In this document: in pieces, positions 1,394 through 63,353 of the stretch
Numbering within the stretch: position 1 is the first letter of the stretch
How the letters are laid out: each line of letters begins with the position of its first letter
Assembly: GCA_963759115.1 (NCBI GenBank)
Contig: CAVWXT010000002.1
Location: forward strand, 373,557-437,556
DNA: 64,000 nt
Reading direction: 5' to 3'
Source: an uncultured Planctomycetaceae bacterium
Lineage (GTDB): Bacteria > Planctomycetota > Planctomycetia > Pirellulales > Thermoguttaceae
Notes under the pieces: generated by a model
The model's database searches: none
The model's input: only the letters and a program-made list of their open reading frames with translations
Told to the model about the DNA's origin: nothing
Position numbers and translations under genes: made by a program

Positions 1394-1765
1394 GCGGACA
1401 TTCGCTGTGCCGTGCGGGCCGACGTACTGTCGGCGACTGAACCCACGCCACGGGCCGCGGTCATGGGTGCGGCAAGATTTCTTGGCACTGGTTGTGAGGG
1501 CCAAAGGCCCTTCCGTTCGCCCAGCCCACGGGCAACGCCCTGGGGAACGGAGGCGATCCTGCCGATCGTGCGGCCCAACGGGCCAATCACTCGACGAATG
1601 ATTGGTCCGTTGGGCCGACAACATTGGTTCCATTGGGCCAATTCTCCAGGGCGTTGCCCTGGCCTGGGTGAACTGAGCCCCTTCGGGGCAGGCAGACCGA
1701 CGCCAAGAAATCTTGCCACGCCCGCAGTCATTGCAGTGGCGCCACTTCTGGGCTATTCTGGGATC

Positions 1766-4129
1766 ATGCAAGATCTCGAAGAAGCGGTTGTTCGTCTCGT
1801 CCACGCCCCCGGCTATCGGCCCGTCAAGCCGCGGCTGATCGCCCAACAGTTGAAGCTGTCGAAAGAAGAGACGGTCGAACTGAAACGGGCCGTTAAACGG
1901 CTCGTACACGCCGGGCGGCTCTGCTACGGCTCAAACCATCTGGTCATGCCCGTCACGGCCGCCAAGGGAAAAAGGGGACAGTCCCCGACCAACCTTCGGT
2001 CGGGCACAAAAGGGGACAGTCCCCTTTTTCCCAAGCCGCCGAAGAGCAACCGCCTGATGGGCGTGTTTCAGCGGGCGCAAAAGGGCTTCGGATTCGTCCG
2101 GCTCCGCGGCGAAGGCGTGGCTGCCGACGCCAAAGACATCTACATCCCCGCCGACCGCACCGGTGACGCTGCCACCGGCGACATGGTGTTGGTGGAGATG
2201 AAGAAACGCGGGCGCGGCGATCCCGGCCCGCGCGGCGAGATCGTCGAGGTGATCGAGCGGCAGACGCAGCAGTTCGTGGGCACGTATTTCGAGTCGGAAG
2301 GGGCGGCCTACGTGAAGATCGACGGCCCGCTGTTCGCCCGGCCGATCTACGTCGGCGATCCGGGGGCGAAGAACGCCCGGGCCGACGACAAAGTGGTGAT
2401 CGAGATGATCCGCTTCCCGTCGCCGCTGCACGACGGCGAGGGGGTGATCGCCGAGGTGCTCGGCCCGCGGGGCAAGCCGGGCGTCGACACGCTGTCGATC
2501 ATCCGCGAGTTCAACCTGCCCGACCGCTTCGCCGAAGACGCCCTGGCCGAGGCCCGCGGAGAAGCCGAGAAGTTCGACGAGTCGCTCGGCCCGCGGCAGG
2601 ACTTCACCGGTGAGACGATCGTCACCATCGATCCGGTCGACGCCCGCGACTTCGACGACGCGATCTCGCTGGAGCAGCTCGACAACGGCCACTGGCGGCT
2701 CGGGGTCCACATTGCCGACGTGTCGCATTTCATCCGCCCGAACACCGCACTAGACCGCGAGGCCCTGGAGCGGGCCACGAGCGTGTATCTGCCCGATCGC
2801 GTGCTGCCCATGCTGCCGGAGGTGATCTCCAACGGCCTGGCCAGCCTTCAGCCGGGCAAGGTCCGCTACACGAAGTCGGCCATCATGGAGTTCACCGCCG
2901 ACGGGCTGCGGGTGGCGACCGACCTCTACTCCGCGGCCATCCGCAGCAGCAAACGCCTCACCTACGAACAGGTCGACGGGTTTCTGCAAGACCGGGAGAC
3001 TTGGCGGCGCAAGCTCGGCATCAAGGTGGCCGACCTGTTGGGCCGCATGCACACCCTGGCCATGATCCTCCGCAAGCGGCGGCTGGCCAACGGGGCGCTG
3101 GAGTTGAGCATGCCCGAGGTCAAAGTGGAACTCGATAAGCAGGGGCGCGTGGCGGGGGCCCACGTCGTCGAGAACACCGAGAGCCACCAGATCATCGAGG
3201 AGTTCATGCTGGCCGCCAACGAGGCCGTGGCCGAAGCGCTTCGCGACCGCGGGCTGCACTTCCTCCGCCGCATCCACCAGGCGCCCAGCCCGCAAAAGCT
3301 CGCCGTGCTCACCGAGTTCATGACGGAGTTGGGCTACAAGACGGAGAGCCTGCAAAGCCGCTTCGCCCTGCAAAAGCTGTTGGACGCGGCCACCGGCCGG
3401 CCCGAACAACATGCCGTCCACTTCGCCGTGTTGCGGTCGCTGCAACGGGCGATCTACAGCCCGATGGAAGAAGGCCACTATGCCCTGGCCAGCGACTGCT
3501 ATTGCCATTTCACCTCGCCCATCCGCCGCTATCCCGACCTGACGGTACACCGGTTGGTCGACGCGATTCTGCGCAGAAAAGGGGACAGGCCCCATTTGCC
3601 GGAACGGCCCGAAGGGTGCTTCGCACAAATGGGGCCTGTCCCCTTTTCCGCAAAACTGCGGAACGACTACGAAGAGTTGGTCGTCCTCGGCCGGCACTGC
3701 TCCGACCGCGAGCAACGGGCCGAAGCGGCCGAACGCAACCTCACCAAGCTCAAGCTGCTGGCCTATCTGAGCGACCGCATCGGCGAGGAGATGGAGGCCG
3801 TGGTGACGGGCGTGGAGAGCTACGGCATCTTCGTCCAGGGGATCAAGCTGCCGGCCGAAGGACTCGTCCGCGTGGAGACCCTGCGCGACGATTTCTACCG
3901 TTTCGACCGCGCCTCGCACACGCTTTCCGGCCACCGCGCCGGCAACAGCTACCGGCTGGGCGACTTGCTGCGCGTCGCCGTGGCGCGGGTGGACCTCGAA
4001 CGCCGCGAGTTGGATTTCCGCGTGGTGGAACGGGAGAAGAGGAAAACGACTGTATCGACGAAGGTGGCGAAGAGCGGCGCCAAGGCGAAGAAGGAAGGAG
4101 GCCACAAACGGCCGAAACGCCGATCATGA
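1766..4129 (+). CDS. rnr: ribonuclease R (RNB-family 3'-5' exoribonuclease)
   Basis: Intact 788-aa ORF with an N-terminal HTH region (MQDLEEAVVRLVHAPGYRPVKP), cold-shock domain (KGFGFV), RNB catalytic core (IDPVDARDFDDAISLE) and a C-terminal S1/basic tail. Two in-frame palindromic-element insertions are noted separately. Confidence 0.92.
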   Translation: MQDLEEAVVRLVHAPGYRPVKPRLIAQQLKLSKEETVELKRAVKRLVHAGRLCYGSNHLVMPVTAAKGKRGQSPTNLRSGTKGDSPLFPKPPKSNRLMGVFQRAQKGFGFVRLRGEGVAADAKDIYIPADRTGDAATGDMVLVEMKKRGRGDPGPRGEIVEVIERQTQQFVGTYFESEGAAYVKIDGPLFARPIYVGDPGAKNARADDKVVIEMIRFPSPLHDGEGVIAEVLGPRGKPGVDTLSIIREFNLPDRFAEDALAEARGEAEKFDESLGPRQDFTGETIVTIDPVDARDFDDAISLEQLDNGHWRLGVHIADVSHFIRPNTALDREALERATSVYLPDRVLPMLPEVISNGLASLQPGKVRYTKSAIMEFTADGLRVATDLYSAAIRSSKRLTYEQVDGFLQDRETWRRKLGIKVADLLGRMHTLAMILRKRRLANGALELSMPEVKVELDKQGRVAGAHVVENTESHQIIEEFMLAANEAVAEALRDRGLHFLRRIHQAPSPQKLAVLTEFMTELGYKTESLQSRFALQKLLDAATGRPEQHAVHFAVLRSLQRAIYSPMEEGHYALASDCYCHFTSPIRRYPDLTVHRLVDAILRRKGDRPHLPERPEGCFAQMGPVPFSAKLRNDYEELVVLGRHCSDREQRAEAAERNLTKLKLLAYLSDRIGEEMEAVVTGVESYGIFVQGIKLPAEGLVRVETLRDDFYRFDRASHTLSGHRAGNSYRLGDLLRVAVARVDLERRELDFRVVEREKRKTTVSTKVAKSGAKAKKEGGHKRPKRRS
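1966..2032. repeat. GGGGACAG-family palindromic element (copy 1), in frame inside rnr
   Basis: aaaaaGGGGACaGTCCCC-gaccaaccttcggtc-gggcacAAAAGGGGACaGTCCCCTTTTt; each GGGGAC-a-GTCCCC unit is a perfect palindrome. It encodes the extra peptide KGKRGQSPTNLRSGTKGDSPLFPK between the HTH and cold-shock domains. Confidence 0.65.
3583..3657. repeat. GGGGACAG-family palindromic element (copy 2), in frame inside rnr
   Basis: The 22-bp inverted arms AAAAGGGGACAGGCCCCATTTG / CAAATGGGGCCTGTCCCCTTTT flank a 27-bp core. It encodes RRKGDRPHLPERPEGCFAQMGPVPFSAK in a surface loop after the RNB domain. Confidence 0.65.
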
Positions 4130-4226: not shown

Positions 4227-5079
4227 ATGCTGCACGACGCTCTGCTTTCGGACAAGATCTGCGATCTCTTGGGCAAACCCTATAGCGCCGGCGAAGGGTA
4301 CGCTATTTATTGTGCTGATTGTCTGCGAGTCCTGCAAAACATGCCCGGCGACATCTTCTCCCTCACGGTTACTAGCCCACCATACAACATTGGAAAAGAA
4401 TACGAGAACCCGCTGCCTCTTGAAAAGTACCTGAGTTGGTGCGAGCAATGGATGCAAGAGGTCTATCGCGTCACGCGACCAGATGGAGCGTTCTGGCTCA
4501 ACGTCGGATACGTTGAAATTTCGGGGAGGGCGAAAGCGATTCCGCTGCCGTATCTGCTGTGGGATAGATCGCCGTTCTATCTGATTCAGGAAGTGGTGTG
4601 GAACTATGGTGCAGGAGTGGCTGCCAGCAAGTCTTTATCGCCCCGGAATGAGAAGCTCCTCTGGTACGTGAAGGACCCAGGGAACTACACATTCAATCTC
4701 GACCTCATTCGGGACCCGGAGGTGAAGTATCCTCTCCAAAAAAAGAACGGCAAACTGAGGTGCAACACAATCGGGAAGAACCCATCGGATGTATGGCAGG
4801 TGGCAAAGGTGACTTCGGGAGAAGACCGCGCCTCACCGGAGAGGACACCCCACCCTGCACAGTTTCCTCTTGATCTTGTGAATCGTGTGGTGCTCGGATT
4901 CTCAAATCCGGGCGAGTTGGTGCTGGACCCCTTTATGGGTTCCGGCACCGTAGCTGTGTCTTGCCTTCAATCCGGGCGGAGGTTTCTCTGGAATCGAGAT
5001 CAAACCCGCCTATTGTGAAATCGCGGCGAAACGAGTTGAGAGGTTTCTGGCAGACAAACGATCACGGCTCTTCGATTAA
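4227..5079 (+). CDS. DNA methyltransferase (beta-class N4-cytosine / N6-adenine family), M subunit of a type II R-M system; 1-bp frameshift near 4990
   Basis: Motif IV SPPY (VTSPPYNIGKEY) precedes motif I (LVLDPFMGSGTVAVSCLQSGRRF), which is the beta-class order. After GRRF the frame breaks; the -1 frame reads the expected GIEIKPAYCEIAAKRVERFLADKRSRLFD*. TTGACT-N17-TATAAG lies immediately upstream, with ATG 4227 at about +7, so the mRNA is probably leaderless. Confidence 0.75.
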
Positions 5080-5850
5080 CGAGGCGGTATTTCCGTGCAT
5101 TCGTCCAAGAACTTCTGATTGTTCGGCTTGATCCTGCGCAAGCGCCGGGAAGTTCTCCCTCAAAGCGAAGGAGGTCCCCAATTGTGTTAATGCCAAGCTG
5201 AGCGAGACGTTCCGACGTAAACGGCCCAACTCCATCCAACAGCAAAACAGGCGCATGTTGTCGATATGGGCCGGGGATCGGAATGAGCTTGTTATCGTAA
5301 ACCGCTTGTTTCAACCCGGCCATCTGGCCGGTGGGCGCTTCTTGAGGATCCCAGTCGGAAGCGTCAATCCAGCCGAATCGGATCAGGGTCATGGTTTGAC
5401 TGAAGAAATTGACCGTGATGTAGAACCCCGATTTCTCCTTCTTGGGGACAACATCGCTTCCTGACTTCTGGCCGTAGCTCCGATTGCCATATACCTTGAA
5501 GCCTGCTTGGCCAGACGTTTTGATTTCGATTGAGAACGTGGATCGGGTACGTAGACAATATCCTTATCCTCTTTCGATTGGTTCCCGCGCCACTGCGTGG
5601 GTGCGCGTTGCTCCAGTTCGCGGGCCAGCAAGACCTCGAAGAAGTAACCGACAATTGTCGCAGGAACCTTGAGGTCCGAGAGTTTCACGGAGATCGAGCC
5701 CGTTCCTACAGTGGATTGCCAGAGCGTAGCCCACGCCGTGGTCGATGCGTCCAGCAACTCGGTTGACTTGAGCGGGTGACTGTTGACAAGCTGCCGGGTA
5801 ATGCTGAGCCAAGACGATTCTGGCTTTCCCGAATAGGGGCTGGTTGTCAT
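5062..5850 (-). CDS. putative type II restriction endonuclease (PD-(D/E)xK candidate), frameshifted; boundaries approximate
   Basis: It lies immediately downstream of and in the same orientation as the C-protein gene, convergent with and overlapping the MTase 3' end. Joining the 5389..5850 and 5000..5392 frames gives ...KDIVYVPDPRS/TFSIEIKTSGQAGFKVYGN..., a VPD-x7-E-x-K motif. No other similarity is recognisable, as is typical for REases. Confidence 0.4.
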
Positions 5851-11240: not shown

Positions 11241-12400
11241 CAGTGCGACCGGCTTGACGGTCATCCCCGGCCGCAGGTTCTGGATGCCGGACGTGACAAC
11301 CCAATCATCGGCGGTCAACCCGTCCGTCACGATATGCAGTCTGTCGTCCTGTAGCGGTCCCACCTGCACTTCGTGGTACTCGACGATGTTCTTGTCACTT
11401 ACGACGTACACGAACCTCTGTCGTTGGTCGCGTCCGATCGCTCTCTCTGGCACCAGCAGCGCCTTGTGGGGCGCGCTGGTCACGAGCCGCACGCGGGCGA
11501 ACAGGCCGGGCATGAGAACGCCATCGGGGTTCGGCAGCAACGCCCGCCAATGGGCCGAGCCGGTGTTCGGATCAATTTGATTCGCCGTTGACTCCAACTT
11601 GCCGTGGCGCGGAAAGCCCTTCTCGTCGCCCACCCCGCATTGGACCGATAGTTTCGACTCCGGGCCAGCCTTGTTATCGCCCGCGCGACGGAGTTTCAGA
11701 ATGGTGCGCTCATCGACGGCAAAGGTGACGCACATCGGATCGACCAAGACGATCGTGGCCAATAGCGTCTTCTCCGCCGTCACGAGGTTGCCTGCGTCGA
11801 CCTGGGAGCGGCTGATCCGACCGCCGATCGGCGCAGACACTTTGGTGAAGTCCAAGTTCAGTGCGGCGAGGCTCAACGCGGCCTTCGCCGCTCGCACGGC
11901 CTCCGCGGCCTCTTGCGCTGACTGGCGATCCGATCGACTTCCGGCTGTGCGACGGTGCCGGGCGTTTTCTCGTTCGCCTGCTTTGCCCGCTTCAGGTCGG
12001 CGTCGGCCCGATCCAATCGGAGTTGCGCAACCCGCTCCTCTCCCGTACGTTGGTCGACTTCAAGCAGATACTGTCGCGGGTCGATCTCGAACAACAGTTC
12101 GCCCGGCTTGACCGTCGTCCCGTCCTTGAAGAGGGTCTTGATGAGATGGCCGGTAGCGCGGCGCGGACCTCGACGACTCGGGCCGCTTCGATCCGGCCCG
12201 CGAAATCCTCGTGATCGGTGACTTCGCGGAGCACCGGCCGCGCGACGGTAACCGTGGGCGGCGTTTCGGTGGTTTTGGCCGGCGCGGATTGGCGCGAGGG
12301 GTCTCACTCATTTTCATTTTGGTTACCGGGGGCGGCTCGGTGGACTTCGATTGGCCGGGCAACTTAATGTCGATTCGACCGTCGTCGCCGACGGTCGCAC
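11240..12400 (-). CDS. HlyD/MFP-family efflux periplasmic adaptor, copy 1; several frameshifts near the N-terminus; start uncertain
   Basis: Across three frames it reads PVLREVTDHEDFAGRIEAARVVEVRA, then LFKDGTTVKPGELLFEIDPRQYLLEVDQ...AQLRLDRADADLKRAK, then LNLDFTKVSAPIGGRISRSQVDAGNLV...VKPVALEPE. Confidence 0.5.
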
Positions 12401-12546
12401 TGCTACCGTCGGGGATTTCGACGCTGGATTTCTGCCCGTCTCTCGTGATGGTGATTATGATCCCCAGAGCGAAGCCAAAACCGCCGACGAACAGCAGCAG
12501 CACGATGAGTGTTACAATACGAACGCCAACCGTGCAACGCCGCGAG

Positions 12547-12650
12547 CGGCTGCGGTGAACTTTTGCCCTCACCCCGACCCTCTCCCGGCGGGAGAGGGGA
12601 CCGAGGCGCGCCGCCCTCACCCTGGCCCTCTCCCGGCGGGAGAGGGGACG
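12547..12650. repeat. two tandem copies of the CCCTCACC...CCCTCTCCCGGCGGGAGAGGG palindromic repeat (family E)
   Basis: The same element occurs in the opposite orientation at 19513..19560. Here it lies in the junction or C-terminal tail region of the kinase gene. Confidence 0.55.
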
Positions 12651-12659
12651 ATTCTCTTG

Positions 12660-14033
12660 TTTCGACCGCTTGTCGCAACAGCGCCGGCAAATCCGCGCCG
12701 GCGCAGAACGGAGCCAATGCCTCGGCCACTTCGGCCGGCGTGGCGTATCGCGATTCGGCGCGGGTCTTTGGCCAACATGCGATCCAGCACGGCCGCCAAG
12801 CCCGTCGGGAATCTCCGGGCAAAACTGGCGGATCGGCGGGATCGGCTCCTGGCGATGGGCCAGCATCTTGTCGAACGTGCCCTGGTACTCCGGCCCGCTG
12901 AACGGGGCCCGGCCGGAAAGCAGCTTGTAGAGCGTGGCCCCGAGGCTGTAGATGTCGGCGCGGATATCGACCGCCCGGCTGTCGGAGGCCTGCTCGGGGG
13001 CCATGTAGTCGGCCGTGCCCATCGCCTGGCCCGTGCCGGTCATATCGTCTTCGGGCGGCTCAAAGGCTGAAGGGGACAGTCCCATTTTTGCGGCGGCTCG
13101 GATCCGTTGGAGAAGCAACGTTGCTGGGCCGGCAAATTGGGACAGTCCCCCGTTGCGAATCGGGCCAGCCCCAGGTCGAGCAGCTTCACTTGGCCCTCGG
13201 GCGTGAGCATCAGGTTCGAGGCTTGAGTCGCGGTGGACCAGGCCGTGTTCGTGGGCGGCCTGCAGGCCCAGGGCCGCTTGCCGGGCCAGCTCGCAGGCGT
13301 CGGCCACGGGGATCGGGCCGGAAAGGGGACAGCCTTGTGCGCAGCACCCTCGGGTCGTTCCGGCAAATGGCGCTGTCCCCTTTTCCGGCCCAGCCGGCGG
13401 ACGATTTCCGCCAGGTCGAGCCCCTCGACGAACTCCATGACCAGCACCAGCCGGCCTTCGATTTCGCGGGCGTCGTAGGCGCGGACGATGTGGGGATGAT
13501 CGAGCCGGCCGATGGCCTTCATCTCCCGCTCGAAGCGGACGACCGCCCGCGGGTCGTCGGTCCGGCCGCGCGGCAGGACCTTCAGGGCGACGACCCGATC
13601 GAGCCGGTTGTGCAGGGCCTTGTAGACCGTGCCCATGCCGCCGCTGCCCAGCCGCTCGATCAAGCTGGTACTCGCCGAGTTGCTGGGGCAACGAGGGCTC
13701 GGAAGTGCCCGGCAACGTTTCGTCGCGGGGGGCGGCAGTGCCGCCGCCACTCCAACGCTGCGAATCGGCGGCCGCCTCGACTCCACCCAACGCCGCCTTC
13801 GCCCGGGCAACGGCCTGGCCGCACTCGGGCTCATCCAGAACGGGTCCGGCGCGATCGGCGCCGCGAAGCCGGGCGACCAGCGTGTCGTCGGCGTCGGCCA
13901 GCGTGGCCAACTCGGCCTGGCAATCCGGGCAGGATTCCAGGTGGCCGGCCAAGGAGTCGGAGGCGTCGTCGGGCAGCTTGCCGACGAGATAATCCATCAG
14001 TTGCTCGCGGCTCGGGCAGGTTGCGGTTGGCAT
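12660..14033 (-). CDS. Ser/Thr protein kinase with N-terminal anti-sigma-like zinc-finger domain; at least 5 frame changes plus repeat insertions; possibly a pseudogene
   Basis: The N-terminus MPTATCPSREQLMDYLVGKLPDDASDSLAGHLESCPDCQAEL is anti-sigma-factor-like. The kinase motifs LGSGGMGTVYKA, HEHGLVHRD, NLMLTPEGQVKLLDLGLARF, GTADYMAPEQ and LDRMLAKDP are spread over three frames. GGGGACAG elements sit at 13068..13153 and 13313..13372. Confidence 0.55.
13068..13153. repeat. GGGGACAG-family palindromic element inside the kinase gene
   Basis: GAAGGGGACAGTCCCATTTTTGC ... GCAAATTGGGACAGTCCCCC; the reading frame changes across it. Confidence 0.55.
13313..13372. repeat. GGGGACAG-family palindromic element inside the kinase gene
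   Basis: CCGGAAAGGGGACAGCC ... GGCGCTGTCCCCTTTTCCGG. On the coding strand it translates to GRKRGQRHLPERPEGAAHKAVPFPA, the same peptide family as rnr copy 2. Confidence 0.55.
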
Positions 14034-19560: not shown

Positions 19561-20282
19561 TCGGTTGCGGCGGCGAGATGCCGCGACAGTTCGTTGGGGT
19601 GGTAGGTACAATGCCACCCCTCGCGGCCATACACAACATCACCTTGGATTTGCACCTTGAAACGCCCCGGGACTCCGGTCCCTGGGCGTTTTTCGCGCAA
19701 TTGAGTGAATCGGGAGTCGAAGCGGGGACGGGGGGGCGAAAGAGGACGCAGCTAATTTCCTTGTCCAACATCTCGCGTCACGCATCGTTGGTCATTCCTG
19801 AAAGAGCCTCTGGAGTCAAGGGCCTTCCGGTGAGTTGTTGGTGGTTGGATTTTGTTTTTGGGCACGTACATTCCCCGACAAAGCCACAAAGGGGCTTTTC
19901 TTGGTAGTTTGAATTGGTTGGGGGGATCGATGGCAGAGTTCAGTTGTCACGGTCATATGCGAGGTTGTTCGCGCCGTTCTTTTCCGTGCGGCGGCACCCC
20001 TACCCATTCCTTCGTGAATCCGTCTGCCGCTAGCGGCAGCCGTTCAGACCCCAACGGGCCTGACACCGAATATGCTTTGCGACCGTCTCGCAGAACACCA
20101 GCCGTCCCAATCAACAAAACGCTCGACAACAAGGCCGAGTCCATTGACCAACTCGGACTGACCAAGTGTCCGCGAGGGCCTCTCCTCGCTGCGAGGAGGG
20201 CCGATGCAACCGCTACTCTCCCTTCTGGCCTCCCTTGTTTTCTGTAACAGGTTCCCCGCCCACCTCTTCCTTCCTATAATTC

Positions 20283-21650
20283 CGCTGCTTGGTGAAGCGG
20301 AGTCGGGCTCTGCGGGGACGCAACCCGACAAGGAATAGCCAAGTCAAGGTGCGCCAAGAGCGTGCGGGGCCTCTGACGAGGGCTTCTCGCCAGGGGCCGT
20401 TTTCTTACCCCTTGGACACCTTGCCATCCCTCCGAAAATCCGCTGCCGCAAAGCACCATCGGGCGATCCTTTCGTGTTCAGCCGGATACGGCCATTCCCT
20501 CGCGTTGCTCTTGCCGGAGCCCGCCGACGGCATACGCCTCGTGGTACTTGACCATGTGCCAGATGATCGTCGCCAGTCGACGCATCACCGCCACGCGACC
20601 GATTTTCGCTCCCCGACGCTTCTTGATCCTCTGATACCAGGCCCTCATGCGCACATCCCGCCGCAGGACGTGCAGCGTGATCTGGGCCAGGATGAAGCGC
20701 ACTGTGGCACTGCCTTGCTTGGTGATCGAGCCCAGCCGGTCGGTCGCCTCGCCGGAATTCCGGCATCCGGGCGTCAGGCCCCAATAGCTGGCCAGACTCT
20801 TCGATCGCGGGAACCGATCAATGTCGCCGATCCGCGAAGCCAAGGCCAGGCTGCCGTAGGCCCCGGCACCCGGAATGCTGGCGATGACCGCCGCCGCCAC
20901 GTTCTCCGCCTGCCGCCGGCGAATCTCCGCCCCCATCTGCTCGATCTGCTCGTCGCACAGCTTCCACTCCCCCAAGAGTTGATCCATCTCCCGCCGGTCG
21001 ATCGGACTGAAGCACACCTGGGTCAGCCATTTCTTCCCCGCGATGGTGTCAATCCCCTTGGTGGGACACTCCTGCTCCAGATTGTGTTTTCGCAACAAAC
21101 GCTTGACGCGGTTGATGATTCGGGTGCGGGACTGCCCCAGACGCTGACGCCGGGCGGTGAGTTGGCGGTCCTGCGCGTCTTGCTCCGTGGGCGGCACCAC
21201 CCGGCGAATGCCTTGCACCTTCGTGCCCGCCAGCAACCGATGACGATTGACCCAGAGGATCTCGCCCAGGGCATTGGCGTCGCGGCGATCGGTCTTCTTC
21301 TTCGACTGCTTCTCGGGCTGAATGAGGATCGTCTCACGGCAGCCATATCCCGGCAACAGTTTCAACAGCCAGTCGTTAAAGCCGCAGACCTCCAAAATGG
21401 CGATGAAGCCGCCTTCCGGTTGGCTCTTCTGTCGCAACTCGGTGAAGAAGGCATGCACCCGTTTCCACTCCGTGCTCACCTGCCGTTTGTCGATCACGTC
21501 ACCGGTCTCCTGGCGAACATTCACGGTCAACTGCTTGCGGTGCTGGTCGATGGAAAGGTATAACATCTCTCGGTCCTCCTGTTTGTACTTTTGGTGGGTT
21601 CACCACGAACCACACCGTGAATAGTACCGGGAGGACCGCTCTTTCATAGA
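20283..21650 (-). mobile_element. IS110-family insertion sequence, copy 1 (boundaries approximate)
   Basis: Transposase gene plus 5' hairpin (GTGGTTCgtggtGAACCAC) upstream of the ATG. The 52-bp terminal block TGGTGAAGCGGAGTCGGGCTCTGCGGGGACGCAACCCGACAAGGAATAGCCA at 20290..20341 is identical to the block at 23321..23372. Confidence 0.7.
20478..21566 (-). CDS. IS110-family transposase (DEDD recombinase)
   Basis: 362 aa: MLYLSIDQHRKQLTVNVRQETGDVI... RDANALGEIL ... GAGAYGSLALASRIGDIDRFP...YWGLTPGCRNSGE, typical IS110/IS1111 N-terminal RuvC-like plus C-terminal domain. Confidence 0.85.
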   Translation of the reverse strand: MLYLSIDQHRKQLTVNVRQETGDVIDKRQVSTEWKRVHAFFTELRQKSQPEGGFIAILEVCGFNDWLLKLLPGYGCRETILIQPEKQSKKKTDRRDANALGEILWVNRHRLLAGTKVQGIRRVVPPTEQDAQDRQLTARRQRLGQSRTRIINRVKRLLRKHNLEQECPTKGIDTIAGKKWLTQVCFSPIDRREMDQLLGEWKLCDEQIEQMGAEIRRRQAENVAAAVIASIPGAGAYGSLALASRIGDIDRFPRSKSLASYWGLTPGCRNSGEATDRLGSITKQGSATVRFILAQITLHVLRRDVRMRAWYQRIKKRRGAKIGRVAVMRRLATIIWHMVKYHEAYAVGGLRQEQREGMAVSG

Positions 21651-21727
21651 ATCAACAAGAGCCTACTGCGGTAACGAAAACGATCCGCACGGCGGATCCC
21701 ACTTTACTTGCTTCCGTGGGGTGACTC

Positions 21728-22165
21728 GTGCATGGGCAATTTATAGAAATTGCGAAGAGCGCATTGTGGCCTTTCGTCGTTCTTTTTCTAAGTTGGCAGT
21801 ACAAGGATAATATTCGGCGCTCCTTCGAGCGCGTTTCTTCCGCGAAGCTACCGGGGGCGGAGTTCGGTTTTGGAGACCTGCCGCCTACGGCGACAAGCGC
21901 GGTGGCAGACAAAACGCCGGTCACACCATCCAATGCGACGGCAACGGTCGCGAATTGCGCGCCGTCGAAGGACGTCCGGCGATGGAGCTACTACTGGCTC
22001 GGCCACGATCTCATGTGGACCGAGGACGGACTTTACCGGGGTGCCTCGAAAGAGTTCATTGTTCACGGCTTGAGTACATCGCTTTCTCATTTGGGGTCTT
22101 CGGCAAAATCTGTGGGTGAAAAATGGGCCTACGGGGGATTCGTCCTGGCAAGGTGGATTTTCTGA
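21728..22165 (+). CDS. hypothetical protein in a low-GC island between the two IS copies
   Basis: 145-aa ORF; local GC is about 50% versus about 68% for the flanks. Confidence 0.3.
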   Translation: MHGQFIEIAKSALWPFVVLFLSWQYKDNIRRSFERVSSAKLPGAEFGFGDLPPTATSAVADKTPVTPSNATATVANCAPSKDVRRWSYYWLGHDLMWTEDGLYRGASKEFIVHGLSTSLSHLGSSAKSVGEKWAYGGFVLARWIF

Positions 22166-22824
22166 GGGATGGCAGGGCAAATAAATGACGGTGGAAACAG
22201 CCGCAAAACCGGGGTTTTCTTGTTGTGTAACGGCCCTCGTCGGGTCTCCCACATCTGCAACGCACGGACCTTTGCCACGGAAAAACGGGGATGGAATCTA
22301 TGAATCAGATCGTTGAGGCTCCCGAAATCACGAAAACCCCTGAAAATCCAGATTCAAACTGAGTTTCACGGCCCAAATCAACCCACAGATTCTGCCGAGG
22401 AGGCCTCATTTGGAGGCTATCGAGGTGCCGGATACCGATTTTAAGTCTAAGCTATCTACACTTCGCGAACGGGTCTCCGCGATGCTCGAAGTCGATCTCA
22501 ACCAAGGAACCAGAGGTCTCTTGCGCACGATATTGCGGAACTCAAGGTGCGCCTCGGCAAGTATATCAATGAAACCAATCGAGAGTGATTTTCCGGCAGC
22601 CGCCGGGACGGCTAAAGGATTGGGAGTGGAAGTGGGAACGGGGGACCAAGAGATGTCAGGAACCGACTCTCGGGAGATATCAGGTGATTCATTCCGGAAA
22701 TGGTTCCTGACACCTATTTCCGCTCCTGACACGTGTTTCCACTCCAGTTATGCCGCGGCCATAATTTCCCGCGGCACACGCCCCCGCGCGAAAAGGGAGT
22801 CAAGATTACGTGGAGCGCTAGGTT

Positions 22825-23229
22825 TTGTCACATAACGACGGGAGGGATCGAATGAGGCTCATGCGGAATCCACATAAGTGCGCTGCTTGCGGTCGCGAAC
22901 TTGATGGCCACCATAGGCACTGCATATCCTGTCGGTCAAAACTGCGGGCCACCGGTAAGTGTGAGTGGTGTGGCATGCTGCTGCCGTCCATCGGCGACGA
23001 CTACCGGCGCACACAGCCACGTGCGCTGAAGCGGAACGCGCGGAGATCGCGCGGCTTGATTTGGGCGACGAGCATTTCTCCGCGCGGGAGCGCGACGCCA
23101 ATGCGCGGGAGAACATCAGGGAGACCAAATTCGGGAGGGATGGCTGATGGGGTGTCCTCGTTCAGCGGAGTCGAGACAGGGACGGGGCTAGTCTCTAACC
23201 AAGCGGAGGAACAACGGGGTCGCCCATAA
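22825..23229 (+). CDS. hypothetical zinc-ribbon protein (low-GC island)
   Basis: CAACGRELDGHHRHCISCRSKLRATGKCEWCG, a 4-Cys-plus ribbon. Confidence 0.3.
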   Translation: MSHNDGRDRMRLMRNPHKCAACGRELDGHHRHCISCRSKLRATGKCEWCGMLLPSIGDDYRRTQPRALKRNARRSRGLIWATSISPRGSATPMRGRTSGRPNSGGMADGVSSFSGVETGTGLVSNQAEEQRGRP

Positions 23230-23314
23230 CCGCCGGCGTGTCAAGGCCCAGGCCAACGGATTTCTTGGGAAACTGCTAATTCGCTTGTCTCGCTGTTATA
23301 ATGTGTGTGCCTGG

Positions 23315-24800
23315 TGAAGCGGAGTCGGGCTCTGCGGGGACGCAACCCGACAAGGAATAGCCAGGTTAGGGCGGGTGAATGACCCGTGATGCCCTGGCGG
23401 TATCCACTGCCAGGGCAGTTTTGTCTCACCGACTCATTCATTTGCTCTACTATGCCTCCGAAAATCCGACCCTGCCAAACACCAGCACACCCGCCGCAAT
23501 TGGCAACGGCTTGTCACTCGTCGTCGCGCACCTAGTAGTCACCCATTCGTGCCGTCCGAGCCGAAGCCCGTCGCATATTGTATTGTTCACCGGTCACAGT
23601 GCCCAATCAGGAGGACAGTGCAGACTTGCGTCTCACGAGAACCCCTTTGCGGGCCAGCCGCGACCGTACTCGTGCGCGATATCGTGTTGCTCTCTACGCC
23701 GCCTGGTGGGCGTGCTCACGCTGCCAACGACGCAGCCGCTTCCAACATATCTCCGCCAGTTTGCGGGCCACCGCCACCCGTGCAATCTTTGCGCCGGATC
23801 GCTTCCGCACCCGCGTGTAAAAGTTCTTCAAGGCCGCGTCCTCGCGGATCGCCTTGATGGCCGCCTCCACGAGAATCCATCGCAACCACGTCGACCCTTG
23901 CCGTGTAATCGAACCGCGGTAGCAGTGTCCGCCCGACTGATGCACACGGCAGGTCAGCCCGGCGTACGCGCCGACCTGTTTTGCCATGCGGAAACGCTCC
24001 ACTTCGCCGATTTCCGCCACGATCAACAACGCCGAGTACAGGCCGATGCCGTGAATCTCGGTCAAGGCTTCCGCTTGCGGAAAAGCCGCCGACATCCGCG
24101 CGATGTGCCGGTCGATGATCGTCGCTTGCCGTCCGAAATGTTTCAATCGCGCCAGTAGTTCGTCGCGGACCAGATTCTCGATCCAGCCGAAGTCTTGCCC
24201 ACGAAACCAAGCTAAGCCGCGGACGCCGAAAGGAACCCGATAAGGGGCTTGCCGATTTTGCCTGGCCAACAAGGCCCGCAAGTGGATTTTCGCCTCGGCC
24301 AACTCGCGGCCCAGACGTGCCCGGCGGCGTGTCAGCTCGCGGAGTTGCTGGTACGGCTCCGGCGGAATGTAGGCCAGCGGAATCTGGTTGATCCGCAACA
24401 GGTTCGCCAACAATTGGGCGTCCAGCTTGTCCGTTTTGGTGCGTTGTTGTACCATAGCCCGCAGACGAAACGGATGGGCCAATAAGATCGTACCGTACGG
24501 TCGGAGCAGGTCGTACAGCCAGCGATACGTTGCGCTGGCCTCGATGACCGCCCGAAAGGATCCCAACGCCTGGACGACGTTCACGATGCTGGCGGTGTCT
24601 TCACAGCGAACGGTGACGGGCTTGATAACTTCGCCCGTGTCGTTCACGGCGGCAATCACCACGGTCTCACGGTGCAAATCGATACCCACGTGCCACATGA
24701 ATAGGTCTCCTTGTTTGGTGGAGGAAAGATGGATTCGTTACTGCTTCCATCCTACTCCACCAGCAAGGGGCCTATCACGCGGCGGTTATAGTATCAGGAG
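23315..24800 (-). mobile_element. IS110-family insertion sequence, copy 2 (divergent transposase, identical 52-bp end block)
   Basis: TATAAT then 9 nt then the conserved 52-bp block at 23321..23372; a longer 3' non-coding region with the cctccgaaaatccg motif shared with copy 1; hairpins upstream of the transposase ATG. Confidence 0.7.
23694..24698 (-). CDS. IS110-family transposase
   Basis: 334 aa: MWHVGIDLHRETVVIAAVNDTGEVI...KTDKLDAQLLANLL...IHGIGLYSALLIVAEIGEVERF... Confidence 0.85.
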   Translation of the reverse strand: MWHVGIDLHRETVVIAAVNDTGEVIKPVTVRCEDTASIVNVVQALGSFRAVIEASATYRWLYDLLRPYGTILLAHPFRLRAMVQQRTKTDKLDAQLLANLLRINQIPLAYIPPEPYQQLRELTRRRARLGRELAEAKIHLRALLARQNRQAPYRVPFGVRGLAWFRGQDFGWIENLVRDELLARLKHFGRQATIIDRHIARMSAAFPQAEALTEIHGIGLYSALLIVAEIGEVERFRMAKQVGAYAGLTCRVHQSGGHCYRGSITRQGSTWLRWILVEAAIKAIREDAALKNFYTRVRKRSGAKIARVAVARKLAEICWKRLRRWQREHAHQAA

Positions 24801-24825
24801 TCTTTAATTGCTCCCCTCACTCGGC

Positions 24826-24975
24826 GCGGCTCAGCTAACTTAGCTCAGGCACTCGCGTGCCTGACCACTCCCTCACGTGGCGTCCCGGACGGCCGTTCGA
24901 TCCCATTTGGCACAATTTCTGCCCTAGACAACGCCCGGCGACCAGCGCATCATAACGAGCGCGGGACGCTGTAGC
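24826..24975. repeat. about 140-bp repeat (copy A) flanking the ParE-Phd cassette
   Basis: About 88% identical to 25748..25880; contains GGCACTCGCGTGCC and ACGAGCGCGGGACGCTGTA. Confidence 0.6.
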
Positions 24976-24985
24976 CACAGCCACA

Positions 24986-25048
24986 GAAAAGGGGACATCA
25001 CTGATTACGGGACGTGATGTTCAGACATATCAGTGATGTCCCCTTTTG
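24986..25048. repeat. GGGGACA-family palindromic element (intergenic copy)
   Basis: AAAAGGGGACATCACTGAT ... ATCAGTGATGTCCCCTTTT. Confidence 0.6.
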
Positions 25049-25182
25049 TCTCGCCCGACGGGGGGACCGAACTGTTTCCAATTCTTGGGAGAACGCCATT
25101 GCCGCTACAGAGGAGTCGCGGCCCTGTGCTGGCGTGCGCGTCCTTACTGGACTGCCCGCACGGAGTATAATCGTATACAGGA

Positions 25183-25486
25183 GTGAGAGCCGTGCGATTC
25201 CAGGTGACCCTGACGCCCAGCGCGGATGAAGACCTCAAACATTACCGTGCATTCGAGCAACGAGCCATTGTCGACGCGATGAAGATTCACTTGAGGGCCG
25301 ATGCGAACGTCGAGACCAAGCGCCGAAAGAGATTGGCCGGACATCCGGTTGCACCCCTGGGAACTGCGAGTCGGCAACTATCGCGTCTTCTACGAATTGG
25401 AAGCGGAAACTCGCGTCAAGGTCGTTGCCGTTGGACACAAAGAACACAACGACCTGTTCATACGGGGAAAGATGGTGAATTTATGA
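25183..25486 (+). CDS. ParE/RelE-family toxin, frameshifted at about 25350
   Basis: MRAVRFQVTLTPSADEDLKHYRAFEQRAIVDAMKIHL.. in one frame, then WELRVGNYRVFYELEAETRVKVVAVGHKEHNDLF in the next. Confidence 0.5.
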
Positions 25487-25737
25487 CCAAAGTGGACGTG
25501 CGTCAAAGACCCGTCAGCGTCGATGAACTGCTGCAATTGGCCAGCGATGACGCAGTGCTCGTCGTCAGCCGCGACGGCCACGAGTTCGTCGTCGAGGCCG
25601 CGGATGCCTTCGACCGCGAGGTCGCTCGACTGGCCGAGAGCAGGAACTTCATGTCGTTCCTGGCCGAACGTTCCCGAGAATCCGGCAGCGTGCCGCTCGA
25701 AGAGATTGAACAACGCTTTGGCGCCGAGCCGCAATGA
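25483..25737 (+). CDS. Phd/YefM-like antitoxin located downstream of the toxin
   Basis: MTKVDVRQRPVSVDELLQLASDDAVLVVSRDGHEFVVEAADAFDREVARLAESRNFMSFL; ATGA overlap with the toxin stop. Confidence 0.5.
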   Translation: MTKVDVRQRPVSVDELLQLASDDAVLVVSRDGHEFVVEAADAFDREVARLAESRNFMSFLAERSRESGSVPLEEIEQRFGAEPQ

Positions 25738-25747
25738 CAGCCAACGT

Positions 25748-25880
25748 AGATCAGGCACTCCCGTGCCTGACATCTCCCTCACGTGACGTCCCGGACGGTC
25801 GTCCGATCCGCTTTGGCCCAATTTCTGCCCTAGACAACGCCCGCCGCCCGGCGCATCATAACGAGTGCGGGACGCTGTAT
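25748..25880. repeat. about 140-bp repeat (copy B)
   Basis: See 24826..24975. Confidence 0.6.
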
Positions 25881-25960
25881 CGGCAGCTTCTGCGGGGGCC
25901 TGCGGCGACGAACGTGAAATTGGAAATCTATCGCGTTGTTGAACAACGCAAGCGACGGCC

Positions 25961-26578
25961 ATGAACAAGAAACAACTGCTCGCTTCGCTCGAAGGGCAGG
26001 ACTCGTCCACGTTGATCGAGTTCCTGGAAGCGGCCTACGACCAAATGAACACCGACCAGCGGCGGGCGGTCTTCGGCAAAGCGGTGAAGAAGGCCAAGCC
26101 GCCGGCTGTCGACGGCAAGTCCCTGTTGGCAGACGTGAAGCATTTCCAACGCGATTCCCTGGCCCGCGCCTACTACGCCCCATTCGACATCAACTCGAAG
26201 AACTTCAGCCACGTTCCCGAGCAGACGAACGCCTGGTTTGACCGCCTCGGCGATTTGTTGAACGATTGCGCCCGCCTGTCGCAACAGGGCGACCACGCGG
26301 GCGCCGTGGAGTGCTTCCGAATCCTGTACGAGTTGGTCGAGGCGATGGGGCGCGGCGAGGAGATCGTATTCGCCGACGAATATGGCACGTGGATGATCCC
26401 CGTGGATGAAAGGAAGATCATCGCCGCGTATCTGGCGTCTCTGGCGGCGATCTCGACGCCCGAGCAATACGCCGCCGCCGCCCTGCCACTGGTGCGACGG
26501 GACAGCATGGAGTCGTTCAGCAAGAAGACGTACAGCGCGGCATCCGTGCCGCCAACAAGGCCCAGAAGGCGCGATTGA
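25961..26578 (+). CDS. hypothetical protein
   Basis: 205-aa ORF (MNKKQLLASLEGQDSSTLIEFLEAAYDQMNTDQRRAVFGK...); no recognisable domain. Confidence 0.4.
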   Translation: MNKKQLLASLEGQDSSTLIEFLEAAYDQMNTDQRRAVFGKAVKKAKPPAVDGKSLLADVKHFQRDSLARAYYAPFDINSKNFSHVPEQTNAWFDRLGDLLNDCARLSQQGDHAGAVECFRILYELVEAMGRGEEIVFADEYGTWMIPVDERKIIAAYLASLAAISTPEQYAAAALPLVRRDSMESFSKKTYSAASVPPTRPRRRD

Positions 26579-26754
26579 AAGCGGAGGTGCAGCCCGACGA
26601 CATTCCGCCGCGGCGGTGTGGCAATGACGAAGCGAACTGAAACGGCGTGCCGCTGGCTTTGCCAATGCTGTGGGCGTTTCACGGTCCCATCGAGGCTTGA
26701 GCAAGGATGGGAAACCGGCAGGGCAGACAGGAGGCAGAGCGACCGGCAGGGAGG

Positions 26755-26960
26755 AAGAAGTACGGAGTACGGAGTACGGAGTGCCAGGCAAGCAGCGCAG
26801 AGAGGGCAAGTGGTCGCTTCCTACTCCGTACTCCGTACTGGGTACTCGGTACCTGAGTGTTTCTCCCCCTTGTCAAAACGGCCCTCACTTGCTAGCCTGA
26901 CCCTGCACTTTACTTCACCTTGTATCCGCAGCACTCCGTACTTGGTACTCCGTACTCTTT
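26755..26960. repeat. inverted arrays of heptamer AGTACGG / CCGTACT tandem repeats upstream of the four-helix-bundle gene
   Basis: gaAGTACGGAGTACGGAGTACGGAGTgcc (26755-26790), then CTCCGTACTCCGTACTGGGTACTCGGTAC (26815-26850), then CACTCCGTACTTGGTACTCCGTACTC (26930-26960). Confidence 0.6.
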
Positions 26961-26978: not shown

Positions 26979-27461
26979 ATGCCCGCCGCACGGAGCTTTA
27001 CGGAGCTTCTGTTCTGGCAGCGGGCAAGACAATGGTCGAAACGGATCTTTCAGTGTACCGGCCGCGAACCGTTTCATGGCGACCGGCGCCTGACGGTGCA
27101 AATTAACGATTCCTCCGAATCGATCACGGCCAACATCGCCGAAGGGTTCGGCCGCGGCACACAGGGAGAGTTTGTCTTGTTTCTCGGCTATGCGATCGGG
27201 AGCCTCGACGAGACCCAATCGCATCTTTGCACCGCTTACGACCGCGAGTATCTGACAAAGACCGAGTTCGGCGAGCTTTTTCAGGAGGGGACGGAGATTC
27301 GCAAGATGACCGTCGGCTTCATTGGCTCGATGGTCAAGCCAGGGTCGGGCGTCAAGCACTTGCGCAAGATGCCGAGTTGGACCGAACAGGTTTGGGAGTT
27401 GTATGAGCGGACCACCGGCAAGCCTCGTCCGCCGCTATTTCAGCAACCGAAGCAGGAGTGA
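26979..27461 (+). CDS. four-helix-bundle protein (23S rRNA intervening-sequence protein family, TIGR02436-like)
   Basis: FTELLFWQRARQWSKRIFQ...SITANIAEGFGRGTQGEFVLFLGYAIGSLDETQSHLCTAYDREYLTKTEFGELFQEGTEIRKM. Confidence 0.7.
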   Translation: MPAARSFTELLFWQRARQWSKRIFQCTGREPFHGDRRLTVQINDSSESITANIAEGFGRGTQGEFVLFLGYAIGSLDETQSHLCTAYDREYLTKTEFGELFQEGTEIRKMTVGFIGSMVKPGSGVKHLRKMPSWTEQVWELYERTTGKPRPPLFQQPKQE

Positions 27462-27474
27462 GAGGGCGGCGTGG

Positions 27475-27600
27475 CGAGAACGAAGTACGGAATGAAGAGT
27501 ACGAAGTACGGAGTACGGAGCAGAAGAGTACGAAGTATGAAGTACGGCGCAGAGAGGTACGAAGCACGGAGTACAAAGCACGGGCAAAGAGTACGGAGTG
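27475..27600. repeat. degenerate AGTACGG/AGTACGA heptamer array downstream of the four-helix-bundle gene
   Basis: gaAGTACGGAATGAAGAGTACGAAGTACGGAGTACGGAGcagaAGAGTACGAAGTATGAAGTACGG... Confidence 0.55.
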
Positions 27601-27642
27601 CGCAGTACGGATGGTGCAAGTAGTCTCGTATGGGAGGATGCT

Positions 27643-49800: not shown

Positions 49801-50698
49801 GGGTGCGATAGTCGCCGGCGGTCAGATAGTATTCGCAGTCCTGCTGCAAGCCCAGGTTGCCCGGCGGAAAACGGCATTGATAGCGATACTCGCCAGGGGA
49901 CCGCGTCAGAGGAATCATCTGATCGATGGTCTGGCCATCGGCCGTGCTGTAGATCAACAGGGGCGACTCGCCCTCGCGCAGGCCGGTCACCTCGGCCGAG
50001 ACGGGAATCGAATCGCCGAGGAAGGCGGGGGCATCGCCCGGCTGCACGTCGCGGATCGTGACTCGGGTGGGCGCTTCGACCGACGACCACGGGAAAAGCA
50101 CCCGGATGGCCGAGCGGATCGGGTTCTTGGGCGAGATCGCCAGGTACAGAATGGACACGGCCAGCAATCCCAACAGGATGCAGCCCAGCCGGACTACATG
50201 CGCTCGGTCTACCGCTGTGTCGATGGGCACTCGGGAGATGTCGGCAGCGGCGCGGTACTCCACCGCCCGATACACGGGCGGCGCGATTTCCTGGCGTCGC
50301 CCCCGGAGCAGCAGGAAATTGACGAGGCTGTTCTTCAGCGTGGGCTGGCTCTTTTCGATGGTGGCCGCGGCGAAGATTGGATTGATCCGACGGACCAACG
50401 GCCGCCACAGGTGCGCGGCGAAGTAGGTTCCGGCCGTGACCACGAGCACCAGCCACAGCACCAACCGCCCCCAGAACCCCAGCCCGCCCGTGATGAGCCA
50501 GTGGTCGATCGTCGCAGCCGCCAGCAAATAGGCCAGCACTCCGATCGCAAGCGTGATGAACCCCCCGACGATGTCCACCGATTTGACATGGTGACGAGTC
50601 TTCTCGAGCCGCCGATCAATGACAACCTCGTACTCGGTCCGCGGCGCGGCCACGTCTTCTGGCGGCAATGATGGAGGGGGTCCAATTCCACTCGACAT
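46897..50698 (-). CDS. large membrane protein (about 1270 aa) with N-terminal TM helices, beta-rich ectodomain, about 30 tandem GGDQK(A/S) repeats and a conserved C-terminal domain; one frameshift near 47350
   Basis: MSSGIGPP..., TM segments, then (GGDQKA/GGDQKS) x about 30 encoded by 15-bp repeats; C-terminus ...EYSRQQTELALEHLRDQLAKEKPALLERLGWTKEDARKFLEHWEKMRQS in the 46897..48849 frame. Confidence 0.6.
48008..48505. repeat. 15-bp tandem repeat array (GCCTTCTGATCGCC[AG]CC[AG]), about 30 units, coding
   Basis: Perfect or near-perfect 15-mers; Ala/Ser alternation comes from a single-nucleotide variation. Confidence 0.85.
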
Positions 50699-50785
50699 AG
50701 GGGGTGCTCCGGGCACTTTCACGGCTCTCTCTGTATTATAGACGCGATTGGGCCTGCGAGGTTCCCCTCGCCGCGCATTTCCGCG

Positions 50786-61037: not shown

Positions 61038-61054
61038 GCAGCACCTCCCTCCGG

Positions 61055-62112: not shown

Positions 62113-62215
62113 TGTGACGCCTCCGTTTCGCGTGGTTCGCCCGTATCTTGGGCGATCCGACTGCGAATGTCAACATGCGGGGTTCTCGCCGCAGGGCCAA
62201 TGAGTTCTTCGATGT

Positions 62216-62278
62216 GGGAGGCGACTCCAGTCGCCGATTGTCCGAAATCAGCCGCAAATCGGCGACTGGAGCCGCCTC
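62216..62278. repeat. family-G palindromic repeat, copy 2 (GGAGGCGACTCCAGTCGCCGA ... CGGCGACTGGAGCCGCCTCC)
   Basis: The hairpin ends 3 nt before the group II intron 5' end. Confidence 0.6.
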
Positions 62279-63067: not shown

Positions 63068-63353
63068 CAAGTCCCGGTTGGGAAGGACTGATCGGCCCTC
63101 GTTCTCGCCGCACGCCGAACCTGGGCGCCTCAACATAACGCGCCAACACGCCCATTTTGCCAAATCAACCGTGTTTCGCGCGTTTGCGCATGCATGAAAA
63201 GCTATTCAGCCGTAAGGGTTTGCTCAAGCCGCAGCGTCAATTCGACGAAGTAGGAGGGAGAAGGCCCCGTCCGAACCGCGCGGGCGGTCTGGACGTAGGT
63301 TCCAACTGCCTGGCGCCGCGCCGACGCGCCACCCCAACGCAAGCGCAATGGTA

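Follow-up and report, generated by a model that had tools for sequence, protein, structure and literature searches.

The two direct repeats that enclose a small toxin–antitoxin (TA) gene pair in a 64-kb stretch of DNA from an uncultured Planctomycetaceae bacterium (the window, whose positions serve as coordinates throughout) are probably, with a balance somewhat better than even, two members of a lineage-restricted non-coding element of the Planctomycetota that would act as a portable promoter with its leader, and not the boundaries of a cassette. To judge from sequence comparison, this element, here called E, most likely represents a previously undescribed family within a known kind, that of dispersed promoter-like intergenic elements. 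The novelty rests in the repeat, not in the ordinary TA pair or in its neighbour, an insertion sequence (IS) of the IS110 family. The core of E is 47 nt long and reaches 98% identity between different Planctomycetota genomes. The comparisons reported here were made with other loci and contigs (L008–L027).

The repeats and their locus in related strains

The repeats, rep1 (24832–24981) and rep2 (25738–25887), align without gaps over 150 nt at 87% identity, with a mean column identity of 88%, and enclose 756 bp that contain a palindrome, a TATAAT hexamer and two overlapping small genes. The initial annotation had placed two repeats of about 140 bp around this segment, and they are indeed there, a few bases away from the coordinates first given. 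Three sub-patterns of the repeat each match just rep1 and rep2 in the 64 kb, where shuffled sequences lead one to expect none, and an nhmmer profile search of the window found no third copy. A degenerate third copy at about 20100–20165 (CCCAAT...CTCGACAAC...TGACCAACTCGGA), spotted by eye, was rejected, as nhmmer gives it no support.

In the closely related loci L008 and L009 the order is groES–groEL, 3.7 kb of small open reading frames (ORFs), an intact TA pair, a single E, a gene of 282 aa and a 23S_rRNA_IVP gene, the antitoxin being 96% identical to that of the window. Neither locus has rep1 or an IS; the sole repeat copy sits downstream of the pair and is 94% identical to rep2, to which it is orthologous, against 86–87% to rep1. 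The window is homologous to these loci over 17.1–19.45 kb and then again from 25056 onwards; because homology breaks and resumes in this way, the following stretch is a strain-specific insertion:

19696–25055, no strand: strain-specific segment of 5.4 kb, from the groEL terminator to the TA promoter region

Besides rep1 and the palindrome it contains small ORFs and two IS110 elements that are unrelated to each other. Apart from the similarity of rep1 to E, nothing in this segment has a match in L008, L009 or L010. Its right breakpoint (25055/25056) is the outer edge of the palindrome and does not lie within the repeat. In the more distant loci L010 and L019 the TA pair directly follows groEL and has no E beside it, and the synteny between the window and L010 breaks just past the antitoxin stop codon, that is, at the left edge of E.

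Between rep1 and rep2, 13% of sites are different; for the orthologous rep2 of the window and L008 the figure is 6%. The site patterns comprise 12 specific to rep1, 4 specific to rep2 and 5 common to both. Rep2 is evidently the ancestral copy at this locus, and rep1 a truncated one found in this strain only. The proposal that a module had been duplicated together with its flanks does not fit this picture, in which one flank is ancestral and the other strain-specific and more diverged.

The variable region between groEL and the TA pair also contains, in the sister strains, paralogous small genes of 65–78 aa that occur in 2–3 repeats at 67–93% DNA identity (L008 7761–9327 and 13282–13882, with equivalents in L009). 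One such gene lies downstream of the pair in L010. These genes are shuffled from strain to strain.

Anatomy and distribution of E

A profile built from the four close copies gave two weak matches in L010, and a degenerate pattern drawn from the shared columns then gave six further copies in three Planctomycetota metagenome-assembled genomes (MAGs), four of them in one MAG. The proposed search for further repeat copies thus returned none in the window itself, and related members of the family in other Planctomycetota genomes. The two L010 copies form a 249-bp direct repeat (92% identical) that brackets 987 bp with an unrelated UPF0175/DUF3368 gene pair, which has its own predicted TACAAT promoter; the flanks of these two copies share nothing.

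Counted by source, 7 of the 12 copies stem from ENA metagenome contigs together with the window and 5 from Planctomycetota MAGs. Their alignment resolves E into a block 1, a variable spacer and a block 2. Block 1 (47 nt) reads TGGCCCAATTCTTGATCTGGACAACGCCCGCCGC..AGCGCATCAT and is 70–98% identical over all pairs of copies, and 85–96% among the four copies of one MAG. Block 2 lies about 60–110 nt further downstream and consists of a G-run followed by TTGGAAA..(6–12 nt)..TG.TGA.CAAC. The spacer between the blocks is unalignable across lineages (16–54% identity) and in L016 carries an extra hairpin of about 90 nt. Every copy has T[AGC]GACA-N17-CATCAT in block 1, the spacing being 18 nt in L009. 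In the window the parts of E are as follows:

24832–24981, + strand: rep1, a truncated E, with the lineage-specific 5′ part and block 1 retained and block 2 missing
24908–24953, + strand: block 1 of rep1, with TAGACA-N17-CATCAT at 24925–24953
25738–25947, + strand: rep2 with its continuation, a complete E that starts at the antitoxin stop codon
25814–25859, + strand: block 1 of rep2, with TAGACA-N17-CATCAT at 25831–25859
25920–25947, + strand: block 2 of rep2, ending 13 nt short of the start codon (ATG) of the following gene

After block 1, rep1 passes straight into the palindrome. Two further observations concern the 3′ side of E elsewhere: L017 has a second copy of block 2 at 4366–4404, about 89 nt past the first, and hairpins of the type GGGGYGGCAGTTGYACTGCCGCCCC, which belong to another family resembling repetitive extragenic palindromes (REPs), follow E in L013 and L017.

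The distance from block 2 to the start of the following co-oriented gene is 13 nt in the window, L008 and L009, where this is the 282-aa gene; it is 96 nt in L014, where DUF1559 follows, and 35 nt in L016, where PALP does. Elsewhere E also lies after RuvB-PIN and HRDC genes, and its immediate upstream neighbour in L013 is a PIN toxin gene. The left neighbour of E in L016 is a divergent MmeI-like gene, which argues that E is not merely a 3′ trailer or 3′ untranslated region. The initial annotation had itself named the finding that would speak against it, a common intergenic repeat unrelated to cassette boundaries, and with E standing in front of DUF1559 and PALP genes this is largely what was found.

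No match to the family was obtained in the curated libraries searched (Rfam and the phage, plasmid and viral collections), and viral contigs, phages and plasmids yielded no E, the sole plasmid match being a 39-nt chance match. A 19-mer from the repeat had no hits in genome contigs, and its 7 hits in metagenome contigs were set aside as chance matches in unrelated sequence.

Several other identities for E were considered and rejected. As a protein-coding sequence on the plus strand it would be a 76-aa ORF with ATGA overlaps at both ends and GPILDLDNARR.AHH common to the copies, and the frame between the blocks varies; on the minus strand the copies have the peptide MMRFAAGVVQIKNWA in common, followed by unconserved tails of 26–78 aa. 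L014 and L017 lack a start codon, and of the codon differences that separate L008 from the window 11 are non-synonymous and 2 synonymous, which likewise speaks against a coding role. E does not qualify as a miniature inverted-repeat transposable element either, neither the repeat search nor the alignments showing an inverted repeat that joins its ends, and the flanks of the L010 copies sharing nothing. A dif site is unlikely: by eye, block 1 contains a partial XerC-arm-like GCGCAT and no second arm.

E as a probable portable promoter

A promoter-consensus scan picks out the T[AGC]GACA-N17-CATCAT site in rep1, rep2, L014 and L017, where 0.2–0.3 sites are expected. This site in block 1 would start transcription toward the co-oriented gene, usually 13–100 nt after E. 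At the locus studied here, rep2 would drive or insulate the 282-aa gene downstream of the TA operon, and rep1 would be a leftover promoter stub, closed off by the REP-like hairpin and located at the inner edge of the 5.4-kb insertion that also brought in two IS110 elements. The TA pair itself sits in a variable hotspot downstream of groES–groEL.

The nearest described counterparts are the putative mobile promoters, near-identical upstream sequences that recur ahead of genes unrelated to one another (Matus-Garcia, Nijveen & van Passel 2012, PMC3488235). Like these, E is short and non-coding, lies upstream of non-homologous genes (the 282-aa, DUF1559, PALP and UPF0175 genes), occurs in several copies per genome and across genera, and carries a sigma-70-like motif. 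The identity expected of mobile promoters, at least 80% over 50–100 nt, is reached by rep1 and rep2 with 87% over 150 nt; the length of the universal core is borderline in this respect. Unlike them, E combines a 47-nt core with a second block across an unalignable spacer, and some of its copies have no near downstream gene.

A number of observations weigh against a portable promoter, or at least are more than it would predict. The sole ground for promoter activity is a match to 9 of 12 consensus positions, and a sigma-54-like pattern, TGGC[CA]C-N5-[CT]TG[AC], fits the same block 1. Conservation extends over all 47 nt of the block, its spacer among them, which is more than a promoter by itself requires. 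In L013, L017 and L018 it is hairpins or a convergent ORF that follow E, not a near co-oriented gene. Two unrelated TA pairs bracketed by E, in the window and in L010, exceed what a pure promoter predicts. The census is small, with 12 copies from about 7 independent lineages gathered through one degenerate pattern, and the site patterns given above do not decide whether rep1 is an old imported paralogue or a fast-evolving local duplicate. Because of the full-block conservation, the sigma-54-like reading and the contexts in L013, L017 and L018, our confidence in the promoter is moderate.

If E is indeed a portable promoter, it would offer a handle on transcription signals in a phylum whose promoters are poorly defined, as well as an example of a promoter that is used again for unrelated genes. 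The locus also suggests that a module between direct repeats can arise when two dispersed copies of a regulatory element meet in a variable hotspot.

Alternative readings

The main functional rival to a promoter is a small RNA gene or a conserved 5′ leader that acts through the primary sequence of block 1, block 2 or both, for example as a base-pairing seed or as a protein-binding site with GGA-rich or GTTG...CAAC motifs, the promoter hexamers then being incidental or only part of the signal. We consider it unlikely. It would account for the 47 nt that are kept at 70–98% across MAGs, spacer included, beyond what a promoter needs; for the position of block 2 about 60–110 nt downstream, where a transcript would carry it; for the duplicated block 2 in L017; and for the strong hairpins after E in L013 and L017 and after rep1, which could end a short transcript. 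Against it, E shows no conserved structure on either strand. RNAalifold gave −4.9 and −10.5 kcal/mol with essentially no covariation, so that a structured RNA was rejected, and Rfam provided no match, cmscan returning just spurious miRNA-type hits under gathering and E-value thresholds. Nor did the three regions scanned (window, L014 and L017) contain an intrinsic-terminator-like site after E.

It is less probable again that E is a recombination or capture site. Self-promoted small modules would then move with one E and join a resident E, leaving the arrangement E–module–E, in the way of an integron cassette with its attC or a dif module with its pdif, by means of an unknown recombinase or of homologous recombination between E copies. 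Such a site would explain why two unrelated TA pairs are independently bracketed by E, in the window (150 nt, 87%) and in L010 (249 nt, 92%, around 987 bp), and why the flanking copies have diverged by 8–13%, as would be expected of copies from different sources. The PIN toxin gene directly upstream of E in L013 and the coincidence of the left edge of E with the synteny break past the antitoxin stop, between the window and L010, also agree with it. However, neither TA family carries E in other genomes (L019–L027), in the sister strains the pair comes with a single E and there is no polymorphism of empty and filled sites bounded by E, and E also precedes ordinary genes (DUF1559 and PALP). At the locus itself, the strain-specific segment breaks on its right at the palindrome (25055/25056), outside E, and rep1 has no block 2. 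Among unbiased genome hits, a confirmed TA neighbour was found in one of about five lineages.

The kinship with integrons that the initial annotation had suspected is not supported. The likeness to the TA cassettes of Vibrio chromosomal integrons (PMC4889954, PMC13108822) lies in a TA module between direct repeats of about 130–250 nt with an IS110-family element nearby. In contrast to those cassettes, there are no R″/R′ core sites here and no intI or attI near: a regular-expression search of 24781–26000 on both strands found no RYYYAAC...GTTRRRY pair 50–140 nt apart, the plus strand lacking RYYYAAC and the minus strand GTTRRRY. An attC site keeps its hairpin structure and not its sequence, and E does the opposite, block 1 being 70–98% identical and RNAalifold giving no consensus hairpin. 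In Pfam scans, the long ORFs from about 9.9 to 37 kb gave UvrC, kinase, HlyD, IS110 transposase, PIG-L, glycosidase and PDZ-domain families and no integrase, and within about 15 kb the two IS110 transposases were the only recombinases. The module appears to have a promoter of its own, with a predicted TATAAT (25166–25171) upstream of the toxin, and there are just two repeats, one of them truncated, where the sister strains have one copy. Nothing marks E as a crossover site at this locus.

A still bolder form of the idea makes E, at about 150–250 nt, a sequence-defined analogue of attC or pdif that serves as the boundary or recombination site of a Planctomycetota-specific cassette system, which would use an unknown recombinase to capture TA modules with promoters of their own, and possibly small modules of other kinds; the window and L010 would then be two snapshots of its work. 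It would amount to a new gene-capture system, and we rate it as improbable, because both bracketed cases were reached through a TA query and lie in TA-rich islands, and because the TA families occur without E elsewhere and a TA neighbour is present in only one of the roughly five unbiased lineages. A perfect 33-bp inverted repeat around a UPF0175/DUF3368 pair in a Pirellulales MAG (L026, 4571–4603 and 5523–5555) is unrelated to E.

Very improbable, finally, is that the repeat is a part of IS110, whether a non-coding end or the bridge-RNA region, or its preferred target: rep1 does begin 26 nt from the end of IS copy 2, and members of the IS110 family, which are RNA-guided, frequently insert into repeated sequences (PMC11208160), but the ends of the IS are fixed by copies in unrelated contexts without E alongside, rep2 and all other copies of E have no adjacent IS, and a comparison of the insertion site with the non-coding regions of the IS for guide-like matches gave nothing convincing, just scattered 6–7-mers.

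The toxin–antitoxin pair

By its predicted features, the pair between the repeats belongs with the ordinary chromosomal type II modules; its toxin-first order is unusual, though conserved. Its parts are:

25166–25171, + strand: TATAAT, predicted −10 hexamer of the pair's own promoter, conserved in L008 and L010
25192–25486, + strand: ParE/RelE-fold toxin gene, 97 aa in relatives, frameshifted here by an extra C at 25354–25357
25483–25737, + strand: antitoxin gene, 84 aa, Phd/YefM-like fold (predicted), with an ATGA overlap with the toxin stop

The TATAAT hexamer is followed by a short GTATAC palindrome and then by the GTG start of the toxin. With one C removed from the run at 25354–25357, the toxin matches Pfam ParE_toxin (PF05016; E-value 1e-9, 39.3 bits against a cutoff of 23); its score against NCBIfam RelE_StbE (24.2 bits) stays under the cutoff of 27.9. 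The run reads CCCC in the window and CCC or CCT in L008, L009 and L010, all three of which encode an intact 97-aa protein. The toxin is either inactivated or mis-sequenced by one homopolymer base. The extra C may be a sequencing error instead of the mark of a pseudogene, since related assemblies have many split genes, such as XFP in five pieces (L011) and a truncated groEL (L009 and L019).

The antitoxin has no match in Pfam (including PF02604) or NCBIfam, and a profile search of Protein Data Bank (PDB) sequences gave nothing meaningful. An AlphaFold2 model built with 26 homologues has a mean predicted local confidence (pLDDT) of 83 and a predicted template-modelling score (pTM) of 0.49, and the first 25 Foldseek hits of this model in the PDB are all YefM, Phd or RelB2, with a probability of up to 0.97; these matches are weak, with E-values no better than 0.03 and TM-scores near 0.4. 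The initial description of the pair, namely a ParE/RelE-fold toxin with a frameshift, an ATGA overlap and a Phd/YefM-like antitoxin, therefore stands, for the toxin by the Pfam match after removal of one C and for the antitoxin, more cautiously, by the predicted fold.

The toxin comes first in all nine fetched loci of relatives in which a toxin was called upstream (L008–L010, L020–L024); in a tenth, L019, the sole ORF called upstream of the antitoxin encodes 55 aa and was assigned to no family. The pair resembles the type II systems YefM–YoeB, Phd–Doc and ParDE in its ParE_toxin match, its YefM/Phd-like antitoxin model, its small overlapping genes and the TATAAT and palindrome upstream. It differs from them in having the toxin first, an antitoxin without a Pfam or NCBIfam match and, in the window, a frameshifted toxin.

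The IS110 neighbour

The minus-strand ORFs 20478–21566 and 23694–24698 both encode IS110-family transposases, which are only 32% identical to each other. The second belongs to the element beside rep1, which also cuts a small candidate gene:

22825–23229, + strand: zinc-ribbon ORF, a candidate gene on weak evidence, its 3′ end cut by IS110 copy 2
23216–24805, − strand: IS110-family element, copy 2, with transposase 23694–24698; ends good to about 2 nt

The ends were set by comparison with two 99.5%-identical copies of a related IS in unrelated contexts (L011 and L012); the transposase of this related IS and that of copy 2 share 91% identity. No trace of E was found beside these related copies. 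Since copy 2 ends at 24805, with rep1 beginning 26 nt beyond, and since L011 and L012 lack the repeat, the repeat is neither an end nor the bridge-RNA region of the IS. The transposase matches and this distance confirm the early remark that the pair and its repeats lie beside IS110 copy 2, and the low-GC island into which they had been placed is also real, with a GC fraction of 0.54–0.62 over 21–28 kb against about 0.63–0.69 around it.

Without the IS, the zinc-ribbon ORF would run to a stop at 24836–24843, among the first bases of rep1, for two of the three possible junction frames, and this putative stop echoes that of the antitoxin at the start of rep2. The ORF was also considered as a homologue of the DZR gene of L008, a relationship that was rejected as the two are not homologous.

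The two IS110 elements of the window have in common a 75-nt stretch (20275–20349 and 23297–23371, 88% identical) in their 3′ non-coding parts, which begins with TATAAT on the plus strand and includes a GTCGGG...CCCGAC hairpin. This stretch is absent from the related IS of L011 and L012, where the window's 23272–23523 has no counterpart; it may reflect the exchange of a module between bridge-RNA regions or a small inserted element. Like the window, the genomes of L011 and L012 have IS110 elements in clusters: in L011 the IS has another, different IS110 transposase gene immediately upstream of it (1954–3252), and in L012 an 82-nt copy of the IS right end stands alone (5604–5685), 245 nt past the complete IS.

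Palindromes, the gene after rep2 and other features of the window

Two features adjoin the repeats on their 3′ sides:

24980–25054, no strand: GGGGACA palindrome with 26-nt arms, 88% complementary, 18 nt of them perfect
25961–26578, + strand: gene directly 3′ of E, 205 aa in the window, with no Pfam family

A single GGGGACA palindrome had been reported for the segment from the start, and it takes up exactly the space from the end of rep1 to 25056, the point from which the window is again homologous to L008 and L009. It belongs to a REP-like family of imperfect palindromes of about 65–75 nt with the conserved ends (G)AAAAGGGGACA...TGTCCCCTTTT(C), which has sites in the window at 1966–2030, 3576–3650, 13320–13386 and 24985–25050; the sequence AAAGGGGACA occurs 8 times in the window against 0.06 expected. 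Like REP and REPIN-type palindromes, the one by rep1 is dispersed, imperfect and about 70 nt long, with at least four members in the window. The likeness holds for the palindrome only, E itself having no inverted-repeat architecture. Two of the palindromes fall in long ORF calls (1412–4129 and 12060–14033), so that either the calls are too long or the palindromes are intragenic.

The gene after E encodes 282 aa in L009 (8224–9072) and 205 aa in the window, where the region of the 282-aa gene spans 25961–26810, and is split into 93 and 98 aa in L008 (10479–11159). Taken together with the frameshift in the toxin and the broken-up XFP and groEL genes of related contigs, the shortened or split state of this gene suggests indel-prone assemblies or widespread pseudogenes. 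Further right, the 23S_rRNA_IVP gene, which encodes a four-helix bundle (26979–27461), has on either side short repeat blocks of the type GTACGGAG in inverted orientation (26748–26960 and 27473–27614), and the same blocks flank it in L008 and L009.

Three features lie in the right part of the window. A tandem array of about 32 units of 18 nt (47972–48547) is contained in a 1148-aa minus-strand ORF (47276–50722). Two adjacent minus-strand ORFs of 428 and 400 aa (59964–62257) are tandem paralogues with 74–78% DNA identity at a spacing of 1079 nt. A group II intron domain of Rfam (RF00029, 56.5 bits) at 62987–63067 adjoins the ORF 63157–63891.

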